Of a DNA stretch of 64,000 bases, positions 56,135 to 61,575 are shown piece by piece. Position 1 is the stretch's first letter. The number at the start of each line of letters is the position of its first letter. The notes beneath the pieces were generated by a model that had not been told where the DNA came from, made no database searches, and saw only the letters and a program-made list of their open reading frames with translations. Where the stretch lies: NCBI GenBank assembly GCA_039915945.1, contig JBDSMH010000017.1:1824-65823 (forward strand). The letters are read 5' to 3'. Source of the DNA: Acidimicrobiales bacterium. Its GTDB lineage: Bacteria > Actinomycetota > Acidimicrobiia > Acidimicrobiales > WLNW01. The position numbers and the translations under genes were made by a program.

Positions 56135-57259
56135 ATGGTGCAACTGCTGGGTACGCCGGCTCCACCCACACCCGAGGAGCCCCGGCGCCGGCAGACCTGG
56201 GCTGACGTTCCGTGGCGGACGATTGTCGCCACCGTTGGCGTCGTCCTCGCCGCGGGCGTTGCCATCGCACTCATCACCGTCACGGTTCGCATCTTGATCT
56301 GGATCGTCATCGCCGGCTTCTTTGCGATCGTTCTCGCTCCGGCGGTGGCCCGCGTGCAAGCGCAAGTGCACGGACGGCGTGGGGTCGCAACGTCCATCGT
56401 GATGTTCTCGAGCGCACTTCTCGTGATCGGACTACTGACGGTGTTCGCACTGCCGGTACGGAGTCAGGCCATCAGCGCCGCCACCGATCTCCCCGGCACC
56501 ATCGATGCCGCTGCCGAAGGCAAAGGCCCCGTCGGACAATCGGTGCAAAAGCTGCACCTTCAGAGCTTTGTACAAGACCACAAGAGCGATATCGAACAAT
56601 GGGCGGATGACCTCCAGAGTTCGTCGTTCTCCATTGCTCGACGCGTCATCAACATCGTCGTCGCCATCATCACTGTGTTCGTCATCACCTTCCTCTTCCT
56701 TACTCAGTCGACCACGCTCGGCAAAGCCGCAATTCGCCTCGTGCCCGAGCGACGAAGGCCCGCCGCCCTACGCGCCGCGGCCGACGCGGCGCGCGCCATC
56801 AGCGGCTACATGATCGGCAATCTCTTGATCAGTCTCATCGCCGGCATCTCGGCATTCGTGTGTTTGCTGCTGCTCGGCGTACCCAATCCCATCGTTCTCG
56901 CGTTGTGGGTGGCATTCGCCGACCTCATCCCCCTAGTCGGAGCAACGATCGGGGCAGCGCTCGCCGTGTTCGCCTCGTTCTTGCACTCACCGACCGCCGG
57001 CATCGTTGCGATCGTCTTCTTCGTCATATATCAACAGATCGAGAACAGCGCGCTGCAACCATTGGTTATGAGCCGCACGGTGCAGGTGAACCCGCTCGCC
57101 GTCATCCTCAGCGTGCTCATCGGCGTAGAGGTCTTCGGGATCACCGGCGCCCTCCTGGCGATACCGATCGTCGGTGCCCTCCAGGTCGCCATTCGTGCGG
57201 GCTGGCACGAGTACCACCAAGGTCATCTACGTATCGACGCCGACGTCCCGCCTGGTTGA
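56135..57259 (+). CDS. AI-2E family transporter (PerM/UPF0118)
   Basis: Eight TM segments. ...LGVPNPIVLALWVAFADLIPLVGATIGA...YQQIENSALQPLVMSRTVQVNPL. Confidence 0.88.
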   Translation: MVQLLGTPAPPTPEEPRRRQTWADVPWRTIVATVGVVLAAGVAIALITVTVRILIWIVIAGFFAIVLAPAVARVQAQVHGRRGVATSIVMFSSALLVIGLLTVFALPVRSQAISAATDLPGTIDAAAEGKGPVGQSVQKLHLQSFVQDHKSDIEQWADDLQSSSFSIARRVINIVVAIITVFVITFLFLTQSTTLGKAAIRLVPERRRPAALRAAADAARAISGYMIGNLLISLIAGISAFVCLLLLGVPNPIVLALWVAFADLIPLVGATIGAALAVFASFLHSPTAGIVAIVFFVIYQQIENSALQPLVMSRTVQVNPLAVILSVLIGVEVFGITGALLAIPIVGALQVAIRAGWHEYHQGHLRIDADVPPG

Positions 57260-57283: not shown

Positions 57284-58564
57284 TCACGTCGCATTGATCC
57301 AACCGGCCCGACCCAACGTGTCTCCGTCCGACGATGTCAACACCGACGTGAGCGTGGTGCCATCGGGTCCAGGCTCCTCTGGCGCGTACTTGTACGGCAC
57401 GGCGATCGGTACTTTCGGATCAGGATCGAACAGCGGGCAGAAGCGCGCGTTCTTACGGAACACGTTGCCTCTCGCGGTGATGTGGCTGATACCGGTCACG
57501 CCGAGTGAGCCGTAGTTCACGACATGGATACCGCACGGATCACCCCCGTCGGGCGGCTCGATGACGTTGTACTCGGTCCAGACCCATGCGTCGCCGCCGA
57601 ACTCCTGGCCCGCGCTCGCCTGCTCATTGCCGCGCAACCCATAGCTGTCGACATAGTTGTTGTAGAGATGCCCGTCCGAGTCGGTGACGAGTGGATTCCT
57701 CACTGCGTTGCCCTGGAACCAATTGTGATGAATGGTGACCTGGATGCGGTGCAGACTGCTCGTCCAACCGCCACCCTTCTCGTTGTTGCCCGTCTGATCG
57801 CCGATCAGCACGGCCTTACGCGTCGTCGAGATGTGCGAGTAAGAGATCGTTCCGCGCATCGGCCCTTTATCACCGCGCGAGACCTCGATGGCTTCGTCGT
57901 TGGCCGACGTGATCTCGACATGCGTGATGAAGAAACGATCTGATCCCCAAACCACACGAATGCCGTCGCCTGATTGGCCATCACCGCGTCCGGGGACCGG
58001 GCCGATCTTCACATTCGTGATGATCACGTTTTCGTTCGCGCGTTCGCCGAAGTAGCCGACGAACAAACCCCCTTCGGCGGACCGCGACGGTTGGACGTGG
58101 ACGTTGGAGCACCGGCCGTCGAGTGTCGTGTTGTTCCCGATCTGAATCGCCGAGTTGAGACCGATCACCGTCTCGCGAACGGCCGGAAATACCGTCTTGT
58201 CGAAAGTGACCCAACGCCCGCCCTGTTCCAAGCCTTCGCGCAACGTTCCGGCGCCCGAATCGGCGGTCGAGGTCACTACGTAGAGTTGCCCGTCGATGCC
58301 CGCACCGTTCGTCTCCGCCAGCTTCGCGAACCCATCGACCTGCTCGAGCAGTAGGTCGCGCGACACGTTGTCACCGAGCGCCGCGCAGAGATCGATCCGC
58401 GGTTGCGTGGTCGCGACGATGGGCGCCGGCTCTGATGTACCGACTGAACCTGGACTCGGCTTCAGATCAACCGGGTCGCCGGAGCAACCAAACACAAAAA
58501 TCGTCGGCACGGCGGCGACCAACAGCCAACAAACTCTCCTGCGGCGGGGACTGCGTTTCGCCAT
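57284..58564 (-). CDS. secreted lipoprotein, pectate lyase-like right-handed beta-helix protein
   Basis: ATG 58564 gives MAKRSPRRRRVCWLLVAAVPTIFVFGCSG (lipobox). ...TSTADSGAGTLREGL...GDGIRV...NDEAIEVS...RNPLV...LYNNY pectate lyase-type motifs. The upstream 322 codons of the 749-aa track ORF are rejected. Confidence 0.8.
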   Translation of the reverse strand: MAKRSPRRRRVCWLLVAAVPTIFVFGCSGDPVDLKPSPGSVGTSEPAPIVATTQPRIDLCAALGDNVSRDLLLEQVDGFAKLAETNGAGIDGQLYVVTSTADSGAGTLREGLEQGGRWVTFDKTVFPAVRETVIGLNSAIQIGNNTTLDGRCSNVHVQPSRSAEGGLFVGYFGERANENVIITNVKIGPVPGRGDGQSGDGIRVVWGSDRFFITHVEITSANDEAIEVSRGDKGPMRGTISYSHISTTRKAVLIGDQTGNNEKGGGWTSSLHRIQVTIHHNWFQGNAVRNPLVTDSDGHLYNNYVDSYGLRGNEQASAGQEFGGDAWVWTEYNVIEPPDGGDPCGIHVVNYGSLGVTGISHITARGNVFRKNARFCPLFDPDPKVPIAVPYKYAPEEPGPDGTTLTSVLTSSDGDTLGRAGWINAT

Positions 58565-58667
58565 GTTCTTGCGTCCCTCTAGCTCCTCAGCAGCGTTCAA
58601 AAATCTACCCTTACGTAAAGGTACAGTCCAAGGGAGACCATGCTGTGTTGTTTCGTGAAAGGTTGCA

Positions 58668-58853
58668 ATGCCAACGACCAATGACATCGTCGTCGTCACC
58701 GGCGCCGCGAGTGGTATCGGTGCCGCGCTGGCCCGGCGGCTCCACCAACGGGGTGCTCGCCTCGTACTCGCCGACATCGATGTCGACAACTTGCGCGAAC
58801 TCGCCGACGAACTCGGCGCGGCCGCGCGGTGGTTCGGCTCGGCGCTGACGTAG
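58668..58853 (+). pseudogene. 5' fragment of an SDR oxidoreductase gene (first ~55 codons only)
   Basis: MPTTNDIVVVTGAASGIGAALARRLHQRGARLVLADIDVDNLRELADELG, then junk and a TAG stop. No remainder of the SDR fold lies downstream. Confidence 0.7.
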
Positions 58854-59266
58854 GTCGGTCGATCAGTCGTCGTCGCGATACGCACGGCGACGCGGTCGTT
58901 GCAACGCGCGTTCCAAGCGATCGTCTCGGCCGTGCGCAAAGCCGCAACAACGCTCGGCCACTTGGCCCGTGCAGCCGCGGTTCGATTCTGGACCGCCGGC
59001 GCGGCTCTTGCGCGCGCACTGACCCGGCCTGTCGCCGCGCTGGTCCGAGATCCGAAGAGCGCGACGGCGTGACCTACGGCCCGACCAATGACGCGAACCG
59101 CCGCGCTGACCGCCTTCGCGGCGGCGCGGAGCGCGGCCAGTGCGCGGCGGCCCAGCGCGACAGTGGCACGTGCCGCAGCGCGCATGGCGGCCGCGACCGC
59201 CGTGGTGAAGGAGCGGACCGGGAGAAGGACTCGCTTCAGGACTGTTGCGATGGCTCTGGCGGCGGC

Positions 59267-59543
59267 GCGTAGCGCGACGAGCAAACGGCGGCCGAGTGCG
59301 AGGGTGGCGCGCCCTGCGGTGCGAAGTGCGACTGCGCCGGCTTTGGCGAACGCGCGCACTGCGACCGCGCACCGCTTGACGATCGCAAAGATTGTCCTAG
59401 TAGCGGTGCGAATCGGTGTCGTACCGGTGCGGGCAACCATGCGTAGTGCGACGAGTAGACGGCGGCCGAGTGCGAGGGTGGCGCGCCCGGCGGTGCGTAG
59501 TGCGACTGCGCCGGCTTTGGCGAACGCCCGCACTGCGACGGCG
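59267..59543. repeat. direct repeat, two 103-bp copies (about 92% identical) at a 174-bp (58-codon) period inside an Ala/Arg-rich array
   Basis: 59267-59369 aligns base by base with 59441-59543, with 8 mismatches by hand. A more diverged third unit lies at about 59093-59266. Confidence 0.85.
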
Positions 59544-59578
59544 TCCTCCGTCAGGCTGCGCGCGCGATCGGGCGCGCG

Positions 59579-59986
59579 TTGCTGCGCCCTGTCGTGCTGG
59601 TGGTACGCGCGTCATACAACGCCGTGCGTAGCGTCGGGAGTCTGGCGGTGGCGGGCACTCGTCGTGTGATGCGCTTGGTGACTTCTCACGTAACCCCGAT
59701 CGTGCGGCGTGCGCTGCTCGTGGTCGCGGTAGCGAGCAAGTCGATCACGACGTCGGCCGCCCGCGTCGTTCGCTCGGTCGCACGCCCCTTCGCGGCCGGC
59801 GGTCGTCAGGCCCGCCTGCTGGGCGGCTCGGTCGTCAACCAGTTTCGTGCTGCGACTGGACGAATCGGCAGGCGCATTCGTTCGACCGCACGGTCAACAC
59901 GAGCCAATGCTCGCCGCGGTGTCGACGATGCGCGTGAGGGAGTCAGGCGATGGGCCAAGACGGTCTCGCGAAACAAGAAGCGGTAA
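59579..59986 (+). CDS. hypothetical very basic Arg/Ala/Val-rich protein (about 135 aa)
   Basis: The third-position GC signal supports this plus frame after about 59600. ...AVRSVGSLAVAGTRRVMRLV...AARVVRSVARPF...RAATGRIGRRIRSTARSTRANARRGV...SRNKKR with a stop, followed by a lower-GC spacer. The start is unclear: TTG 59579, and the frame is open from 59501. Confidence 0.35.
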   Translation: MLRPVVLVVRASYNAVRSVGSLAVAGTRRVMRLVTSHVTPIVRRALLVVAVASKSITTSAARVVRSVARPFAAGGRQARLLGGSVVNQFRAATGRIGRRIRSTARSTRANARRGVDDAREGVRRWAKTVSRNKKR

Positions 59987-60318
59987 CGCGCCACAGCTGG
60001 GACAATTGAGCTGAGCGACACCGAACGCGAGCGTGTGTGGGATGCAGCGGCCAGAGAAAAAACAGCGCGACTTCGGGTGAGGCGGGTGAGCGAACATTCA
60101 CCCCATCGCGGCGACTCAAGATCTCTCTCGAGTGGTCGATAAAGAACTAACGGGTGCTGACATCGCATCCTATTGCCGGGGTTGCCGGACGTGGCCTGAC
60201 GATTAGTTGTATAGGCGCCTCCCCTACAACCCGGTTCAGAAGATCGTTTCGTACCGGGGGCAACCCTCTACGGCGGCGGTGCTGCTGGTAGCGATGTCCC
60301 GTACGAACTGAGAGATCA

Positions 60319-61575
60319 ATGAAGACATCCGCCGTGCCGTTGCGCCGTCTGTTTGCCGTCGTGCTCGCGATCACAATGGGAGGTGCGGTGCTCTCCTTGG
60401 GAGGCACTGCGTATGCCGCCGATGTGGCCACGGTGCCGCTTGGTACATCGGTCAACTATTCGGTGCTTGGTGGATCGACGGTGACCAACACCGGGGCCAC
60501 CGTCCTCCACGCCAGCCTCGGGCTTTCGCCCGGCACGTCGATCACCGGCTTTCCACCGGGATTGGTCAACGCGCCCGGCACCACGGACATCGCAAATCCG
60601 GCCGCGCAACAAGCGCAGGTAGACCTCACCGCCGCGTACGTCAACGCTGCCGGTAGACCGATCAACGCCACGACGACCGCCGATCTCGCGAACCTCACAC
60701 TCGTAGGAGGTGTCTACTCCGGGCCCAGCAAGTCGCCGCTGAGCCTCACGGGGCCGCTCGTCCTCGACGGGGCCGGCAACAACGACACTGTGTTCATTTT
60801 CCAAACCGACTCAACGCTGACCACGGCATCGAGCAGCACCATCACGCTGATCAACGGCGCGCAAGAGTGCAACGTCTTCTGGCAGGTCGGTAGCTCGGCC
60901 ACGCTCGGAACGGGCTCGGTCTTCGCCGGCAACATCTTGGCGCTGTCGTCGATCACGGTAACCACCGGCGTAACCGTGCATGGCCGGGCGCTCGCCCGCA
61001 ATGCTGCGGTGACGTTGGACAACGACACCTTCACCGTGCCGACTTGTGCGAACACGATCACCGGCGGACGTCAGGCACCTCCCACGACCACCCCACCCGA
61101 GGCACCCGTCGCTCAGCCCGGAACTCCCACTGGGCAACTCGGTGTGCCGCCAACGAGCCTCGCCTTCACCGGCCCCCGCATCGTGTTGCCGCTCGTACTG
61201 GCCCTCGTGTTTCTCACGCTCGGCGCCGCCGCGCTGACCTTCGACCGGTCACGCGCGCAGAGGCCCTACGGCCCGACGCTCAGAAATACAGGTGCCAAGG
61301 CGAACGAACTGCGCCACGATGTTGCGACATCGCCGAGTGCAGGAGGTCGACGTTGGCTGGTCTCGAAGCAAGCACCCCGGTCACTACCGAACGTGAGTTG
61401 CGCGAACTACTCGGCCATCCAGGGCCTGGCGTCGCCGCCAAAGACCGCCCGTCGCTCGATGACTACGACCGACAGTGGCTCGCACACTCGCCGTTCTGTC
61501 TCGTCGCAACATCGGCTGCCGACGGCACGTGCGACGTATCGCCCAAGGGTGATCCTCCCGGGTTCACCTTCGTAG
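60319..61575 (+). CDS. DUF3494 (ice-binding-like beta-helix) surface protein with signal peptide and LAFTG sortase signal
   Basis: Signal peptide ...GGTAYAA. VNYSVLGGSTVTNTG...GLSPGTSITGFPPG...VFIFQTDSTL...NVFWQVGSSATLG...GRALARNAAVTL. LAFTG plus a TM segment plus DRSRAQR ends at about 61270. The frame then runs on for about 100 low-quality codons into the next gene. Confidence 0.8.
   Translation: MKTSAVPLRRLFAVVLAITMGGAVLSLGGTAYAADVATVPLGTSVNYSVLGGSTVTNTGATVLHASLGLSPGTSITGFPPGLVNAPGTTDIANPAAQQAQVDLTAAYVNAAGRPINATTTADLANLTLVGGVYSGPSKSPLSLTGPLVLDGAGNNDTVFIFQTDSTLTTASSSTITLINGAQECNVFWQVGSSATLGTGSVFAGNILALSSITVTTGVTVHGRALARNAAVTLDNDTFTVPTCANTITGGRQAPPTTTPPEAPVAQPGTPTGQLGVPPTSLAFTGPRIVLPLVLALVFLTLGAAALTFDRSRAQRPYGPTLRNTGAKANELRHDVATSPSAGGRRWLVSKQAPRSLPNVSCANYSAIQGLASPPKTARRSMTTTDSGSHTRRSVSSQHRLPTARATYRPRVILPGSPS

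Follow-up and report, generated by a model that had tools for sequence, protein, structure and literature searches.

A tract of an Acidimicrobiales genome in which related Ala/Arg-rich coding modules lie on both strands, next to the stump of a short-chain dehydrogenase/reductase (SDR) gene, raises the question of whether several small genes, a recombining cassette locus or the parts of a single broken gene are being read. The tract lies in a 64,000-nucleotide stretch, hereafter the window, of contig JBDSMH010000017.1 (C123, 65 kb; positions 1,824 to 65,823 of the forward strand) from a metagenome-assembled genome (MAG) of 237 contigs with a completeness of 96.9% and a contamination of 7.9%. 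The answer, which we hold with high confidence, is that three pieces of the locus, at about 58827-59986, are one once-continuous repeat-protein gene with its 474-bp middle inverted, and that the gene is now a fixed pseudogene with multiple lesions. An inverted middle had been one of three explanations offered in the original prediction, and it is the one borne out by collinear mapping and by relatives that carry the gene on a single strand. The family concerned was found by searching with the orthologue of the locus in a same-genus genome (G002) and then with its relatives, which yielded the proteins P0001-P0009 and the metagenomic loci L033-L036; members have 410 (P0003), 488 (P0004) and 486 (P0005) amino acids. 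The features of the locus itself are the following.

58827-59070, plus strand: left piece of the repeat-protein gene, frame mod 3 = 0, about P0003 residues 44-108
58851-58853, plus strand: in-frame TAG inside the family homology, a nonsense lesion (RWFGSALT*VGRSV against RWLGSTLTSLWRSV in P0003)
59061-59070, no strand: left copy of a 10-bp direct repeat, GCGACGGCGT, ending exactly at the left breakpoint
59070-59072, plus strand: TGA ending the left piece, made by the inversion junction (TAC after the segment is flipped back)
59071-59544, minus strand: inverted segment, 474 bp, about 2.7 repeat units of 58 codons, about P0003 residues 109-250
59126-59228, minus strand: third, degenerate repeat copy, 65% identical, spacing 141 (repeat search)
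59267-59369, minus strand: repeat copy 1, 103 bp (repeat search)
59441-59543, minus strand: repeat copy 2, 103 bp, 93% identical (96/103) to copy 1 and 174 bp away (repeat search)
59535-59544, no strand: right copy of the 10-bp direct repeat, GCGACGGCGT, ending exactly at the right breakpoint
59545-59986, plus strand: right piece, conserved basic C-terminal domain, frame mod 3 = 2, stop TAA at 59984-59986

Placed on P0003, the three pieces are consecutive: the left piece covers residues 37-108 on the plus strand, the middle about 109-250 on the minus strand and the right piece 253-410 on the plus strand, and collinearity with residues 37-410 is obtained only when 59071-59544 is flipped. In tblastn the left piece matches at 58803-59051 (+), with E values of 2e-5 for P0006 and 7e-4 for P0003, and the right piece at 59531-59983 (+) against P0003 253-410 (E 6e-20); composition-corrected tblastn places the middle at 59539-59273 (-) against P0003 118-206 with 62% identity (E 7e-18). 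The plus-strand open reading frame (ORF) 59579-59986 inside the right piece has an orthologue in G002 (E 3.4e-20), likewise upstream of the orthologous ice-binding gene, and the right piece retains the basic C-terminal domain that is conserved in the family (TPI..RPxAxxGRQAR..DARxGVRRWA). All of the matches in each of the other family loci are on one strand; full-length single-strand members are P0003, P0004, P0005 and L035:4523-5803, and the G002 fragment is confined to one strand as well. Because it keeps to one strand across the position of the window's right junction, the inversion is specific to the window's lineage.

The segment 59071-59544 was flipped back in a script, and the result was compared globally with P0003. 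After this operation the left junction reads through in frame unchanged, with the junction peptide running from ..SATA directly into YAVAVRAF.., and the spacing from the left junction to the next conserved block equals that of P0003 within one residue, as counted in residues. The right junction is one base short (marked X), leaving the C-terminal domain offset by one base. The flipped-back frame has 394 codons with one stop, the TAG at 58851, and one X; 165 of 355 positions are identical to P0003, and the global score is 570 versus 383 for the locus as it stands. The breakpoints are thus located to within a few bases. Other choices (L=59061/R=59534, or the removal of one 10-mer) were discarded because, by hand frame arithmetic, they put the pieces out of frame.

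The coding sense of plus, minus and plus for the successive pieces, which the original prediction had drawn from rough counts of A/T by codon position, is confirmed by shuffle scores, tblastn and a profile search, and the peptides it quoted for the minus-strand unit, the left plus-strand module and the ORF 59579-59986 read as stated. Its two 103-bp copies, given as about 92% identical at a distance of 174 bp, also stand. Six of the seven differences between these copies fall at window position mod 3 = 2, and the seventh (59284) pairs with 59282 to exchange TTG and CTA, both Leu on the minus strand, so that all seven are synonymous in the minus frame and leave the same peptide, while the plus frame would show one K/R change. 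The degenerate copy differs at 36 positions, 20 of which belong to the shared third codon position. The middle region has therefore evolved as coding DNA, but the pattern alone leaves the strand unsettled because the minus frame and its plus-strand mirror frame share third positions. The decisive evidence that the middle would code on the minus strand is homology. The minus translation of 59072-59551 scores against family members with z of 4.3-6.7 and none of 300 shuffles reaches its score, whereas the plus translation of the same interval gives z of -1.1 to 1.3 over composition-preserving shuffles; composition-corrected tblastn returns no plus-frame match anywhere in the middle segment. When four family members, the window excluded, are made into a profile, its best match in the whole genome falls at 59237-59542 (-), with an E value of 9.7e-18. 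The GC content by codon position agrees, with GC1 exceeding GC2 in the minus reading of the middle and the reverse in the plus reading. Since the homology is confined to the minus strand, GCG/CGC codon symmetry fails to explain the pattern, which settles one of the refutations that the original prediction had proposed for itself.

The inversion is only one of the lesions that the gene carries. In the window, family homology sets in at the position matching P0003 residue ~37-44, with an SDR fragment ahead of it; the junction of the SDR and repeat genes is within 58803-58830, where the fusion is in frame. The acidic N-terminus with its near-invariant hydrophobic motif (consensus LGRILAIPLVPFVALWEA), which is found in P0003-P0007, L033, L034 and L035, is absent from the window. 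The homology continues leftwards through the TAG at 58851 and begins at RWFGSALT, and the two independent metagenomic contigs covering this codon (X2 and X6) list no difference from the window there. An ATA at 58878-58880, aligned with M1 of P0001, was considered as a mutated start codon and rejected, as longer members show homology upstream of it through the TAG. An 18-residue block with AQWRR, shared by the other five sequences aligned at this place, is missing from the right piece. No continuous single-strand ORF spans the locus: its pieces alternate plus, minus and plus, occupy three frames and include a TAG and a TGA. Four lesions are visible. A deletion would have removed the gene's first 40-odd codons with the invariant hydrophobic motif and, by inference, whatever lay upstream together with the 3' part of the SDR gene, leaving the SDR start fused in frame to the repeat gene; the in-frame TAG at 58851 is a second lesion. 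As a third, the inversion of 59071-59544 has put 2.7 units on the minus strand and created the TGA at the left junction, and a base missing at the right junction puts the C-terminal domain out of frame. The locus is thus a relic of the P0003-like family and not a working member. Own-genome and profile searches found no second copy of the family in this genome; a weak own-genome match on contig C147 was rejected because the frame concerned is junk within an acyl-CoA-dehydrogenase region.

How the segment came to be inverted can be approached through the 10-bp direct repeat that ends at each breakpoint. Flipping the segment back would bring the two 10-mers together as a perfect 20-bp palindrome at the left junction, which is a feature of the reconstruction. 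Among random pairs of zones from the locus, 0.9% share a match of at least 10, by a post hoc test. The inversion was probably a one-off event without a recombinase, perhaps centred on this reconstructed palindrome; a break or template switch there, costing one base at the other junction, would agree with the sequence. Template switching associated with palindromes or quasipalindromes is a source of inversions. The locus resembles such cases in the 20-bp palindrome at the left breakpoint after flip-back and in the one-base loss at the other junction, but the window's palindrome is itself a reconstruction, and sequence alone shows no mechanism. A 464-bp insertion with target-site duplication was rejected, because its removal leaves the flanks out of frame and deletes ~140 collinear residues. 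As to timing, the 103-bp copies differ only synonymously, so most of their divergence probably accrued under selection on the minus-strand reading, before the gene broke, and we infer that the inversion is recent compared with the unit duplication. In having several independent lesions and no intact second copy found in the genome, the locus is like an ordinary bacterial pseudogene made by deletion, nonsense mutation and rearrangement; it differs in that an intragenic inversion so clean, with almost nothing lost and the same 10 bp at both ends, is an uncommon lesion, and in being easily mis-annotated as small genes.

The alternative that the segment is flipped reversibly by a recombinase encoded elsewhere, switching or recoding the repeat protein, deserves attention since premature stops are known to arise from intragenic invertons (Chanin et al., 'Intragenic DNA inversions expand bacterial coding capacity', PMC10028968); in these, the segment is flanked by inverted repeats and flipped by an invertase, and both orientations coexist. 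The window shares with them an inverted segment wholly within coding sequence and a premature stop at the junction. It would also suit a programmed switch that the segment is cleanly bounded with a seamless, in-frame left junction after flip-back, that a non-random 10-bp repeat marks both ends, and that other contigs of the genome hold 25 matches to PF00589 and six to PF00239, the tyrosine and serine recombinases. Neither profile has a match on C123, however, and the end repeats are direct: no inverted match of at least 8 bases exists between the junction zones (the longest has 5), and the inverted pairs from the repeat search are not located at 59071/59544. Logan contigs of four runs from four studies were aligned to 58000-60600, and no joint or strand change appears in them; they show the present orientation only, although such contigs drop rare variants. 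Neither orientation is intact, given the TAG at 58851, the one-base offset, and the want of the N-terminal motif and of a family start codon; as no orientation gives an intact gene, a programmed switch seems unlikely, and this alternative as a whole very improbable. With direct end repeats, no nearby recombinase, one orientation seen and further lesions, the locus is not an intragenic inverton by the defining features in PMC10028968. The recombining, shufflon-type cassette locus that the original prediction had also entertained in general terms fares no better, because the pieces are consecutive and not alternative, the direct 10-mer pair is the only repeat at the ends in place of flanking inverted repeats, no recombinase lies on the contig, and the contigs of the four runs show one arrangement.

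We give as little weight as to the programmed switch to the idea of three working small paralogues, namely a 57-codon plus-strand gene, a minus-strand repeat gene and a 135-codon plus-strand gene, which corresponds to the convergent and divergent paralogs of the original prediction. Each piece does have an open frame, with ORFs starting at TTG or GTG inside, and the codon-position signals are kept. The pieces are, however, consecutive parts of one domain order and not whole paralogues, and no relative is arranged in this way. The minus frame, predicted to reach the pectate-lyase gene without a stop, is open from 59533 to 57284 (749 codons, 2.2 kb) and enters that gene in frame, through its signal peptide. 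The supposed divergent starts would be 45 bp apart, and a scan of 58400-60400 for promoters and terminators gave no promoter-like site and a single terminator-like site that is within chance. The stretch was not found in any RNA run.

An assembly artefact, in which a repeat collapse or a chimeric join made the strand switches, would be understandable in a MAG of so many contigs with its contamination and at a repetitive, GC-rich locus; the G002 assembly also breaks inside the same gene. The original prediction had named assembly collapse as a possible refutation should relatives show a simple single-strand gene; the relatives do carry the gene on one strand, but independent contigs reproduce the window's arrangement. 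A contig of run X2 spans 58000-59902 collinearly with 5 single-letter differences, one of X7 (58983-59211) bridges the left junction and one of X6 (59386-59700) bridges the right junction; the three come from three studies and have 0-5 differences from the window. The arrangement is therefore real, an assembly artefact is ruled out as its source, and what chance is left to this explanation is minimal. Two side observations concern the same contigs. Coverage by run X1, which was read in part with its records filtered, has a gap at 58788-60058. One X7 contig fits the window rightwards from 59555, 11 bases from the right breakpoint, after 255 unrelated letters, the last 30 of which are, by eye, not the reverse complement of 59071-59100; this loose end may come from a different allele or be a short match in another organism. 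The weakest explanation, that codon symmetry feigns the minus-strand reading and that the true middle is the plus-strand ORF 59088-59669, can practically be set aside: this frame is indeed open for 193 codons and the shared third positions hardly separate the two readings, but shuffle scores, tblastn, the profile search and the GC asymmetry all speak for the minus strand.

Several points weigh against the reading of the locus as a fixed pseudogene with an inverted middle. The pieces show no decay beyond the lesions listed, and the right piece could still give a truncated protein if translation began at an internal start. The 5' deletion would follow from the family architecture, the G002 contig ending inside the gene. 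Frame changes occur in two other metagenomic family loci, so sequencing or assembly error may contribute to the single-base lesions, for example the one-base offset. Contigs are unable to show a minor orientation, such as a low-level inverted isomer. The 10-bp direct repeat at both breakpoints is unlikely to be due to chance (~1%, post hoc) and has no proven explanation.

The left flank of the relic has been rearranged as well. The neighbouring genes are as follows.

56135-57259, plus strand: transporter-like gene, left of the pectate-lyase gene
57284-58564, minus strand: pectate-lyase lipoprotein gene, left neighbour, outside the relic (Pfam PF00544, E 5e-10; lipoprotein-like N-terminus by eye)
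58668-58826, plus strand: SDR stump with start codon and TGxxxGIG Rossmann motif, ~53 codons (adh_short, E 1.4e-10)
60319-61575, plus strand: Ice-binding-like (PF11999) surface-protein gene, right neighbour (Pfam E 2e-56)

The SDR gene had been predicted to stop at 58853 and the array to start at 58854. The stump is genuine: the ORF that holds it (61 codons, 58668-58853) matches adh_short (PF00106) with residues 7-52, equivalent to profile positions 2-47 of 195, and includes the N-terminal nucleotide-binding motif TGxxxGIG of the Rossmann fold, VVVTGAASGIGAAL. The TAG at 58851, however, lies in repeat-gene homology, and the left piece, a related module as predicted, starts ~25-50 bp further left, at ~58803-58830. 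A full-length SDR domain carries the catalytic Tyr/Lys region; here nothing of PF00106 beyond profile positions 2-47 of 195 is present, and from residue ~54 on the homology is to the repeat protein. In G002 (L032, C221, 2837-4231) the SDR gene starts 18 nt after the orthologous transporter gene, near a contig end. The SDR orthologue there (L032 3980-4231) matches the window's stump as far as GARLV and then skips to the stretch CLNADIV...GVNLGG; ~50 residues between strand 2 and the NNAG region seem to be absent, the contig ends 84 codons in, and this orthologue may itself be shortened.

The pectate-lyase gene is not present between the orthologous transporter and SDR genes of G002 and is an extra in the window relative to that order; because it sits on the opposite strand between the two, unlike in G002, the rearrangement extends to this flank. 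Paralogues of it, 68-70% identical, are found on contigs C234 and C144 of the same genome. On the right side, an ice-binding-like gene downstream of the repeat-protein gene is common to the window and G002. As the orthologous transporter of G002 directly precedes the SDR gene at the contig end, the ancestral order was probably transporter, SDR, further genes if any, repeat gene and ice-binding gene. The window's ice-binding-like gene extends ~100 codons beyond the point at which the orthologues in G001 (322 aa) and G002 stop, following their sorting signal, and this excess length is a further sign of decay beside the relic.

What has been lost can be judged from the intact members. The statement that the array has no recognisable family is correct for curated libraries, as searches of Pfam, NCBIfam, PADLOC and the PDB sequences gave nothing for the family or its partner beyond sub-threshold noise, but a family does exist. 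Uncharacterised and rare, it has been observed in no more than a few soil and sediment assemblies of Acidimicrobiales type; when P0001 was searched against 1.84 billion cluster representatives, only five matched. Its members contain repeat units of 29 or 58 residues rich in Ala, Arg, Val and Leu (Ala 20-23%, Arg 16-20%, net charge +41 to +73). In three members the hydropathy has a single sharp periodicity of 99-100 degrees, equal to 29 residues per 8 turns, which is coherent over 190-240 residues and has a power of 263-296, whereas shuffles average 29 and reach 76 at most. In the window's own units the peak is at 100 degrees, with Arg/Lys on the polar face and Leu, Val, Ile and Ala on the opposite face. 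An AlphaFold2 model of P0003 from a 7-sequence alignment is all-helical, with pLDDT 58 and pTM 0.24, values that do not warrant a fold search.

Directly upstream of the family gene in the four loci L033-L036 lies the gene of a partner, a protein of ~240 residues with a hydrophobic stretch resembling two transmembrane segments (2-TM), and in L035 the partner gene overlaps the start of the family gene. No such gene was found in the window or, with one query, in the genomes G000, G001 and G002. In P0008 (795 aa, from a 198-kb ENA contig) the 2-TM partner is fused to the repeat protein with ~3.5 near-perfect 58-residue units, a fusion that ties the two genes together in function and shows that the unit was amplified recently. 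Damage is also seen at other family loci: L033 (~1934-1975) and L034 (~993-1190) have one reading-frame change each within the gene, P0007 resembles P0006 but has an internal deletion that takes it out of frame, and P0006 reads through into a methyltransferase/hydrolase. This may be real decay, repeat-mediated deletion or assembly error in GC-rich repeats.

The main lesson is for annotation: what a gene caller would list here, be it a 749-residue pectate-lyase fusion, a short SDR or several 'hypothetical proteins' rich in Ala and Arg on the two strands, is in each case a piece of the same dead gene. Nature has provided here a clean case of an intragenic inversion with almost no loss, whose breakpoints are defined and which has no inverted repeats, and it counsels caution in calling invertons from orientation differences alone. 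It is not a new kind of system. As a by-product, a rare uncharacterised family has been defined whose amphipathic repeat is unusually regular and whose membrane partner is conserved; the window has only remains of this family.

Long amphipathic-helix repeat proteins on lipid surfaces include the apolipoproteins, the perilipins and the 11-mers of alpha-synuclein, and helical membrane-stress proteins with small membrane anchors are exemplified by LiaH-LiaI and PspA-PspBC. The family resembles all of these in its phase-coherent amphipathic helix over 190-240 residues, its N-terminal hydrophobic segment and its adjacent or fused 2-TM partner; it differs from them in a period of 29 residues per 8 turns in place of 11 per 3 and in a polar face that is almost purely arginine. 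Because of the N-terminal hydrophobic helix, the 2-TM partner and the amphipathic helix of 200-300 residues with its arginine stripe, a membrane-surface coat or scaffold would be the most likely role of the intact protein, to which we assign about an even chance, and nucleic-acid binding is the main alternative for the intact family. A bolder and distinctly tentative possibility is that the soil Acidimicrobiales possess an undescribed two-gene module, in which a 2-TM protein and a phase-coherent amphipathic-helix repeat protein with an arginine stripe opposite Leu/Val/Ile would form a new membrane-surface coat or scaffold. Such a module would vary in repeat number and break repeatedly, and in the present genome it might have been dismantled by a palindrome-centred, recombinase-free inversion.

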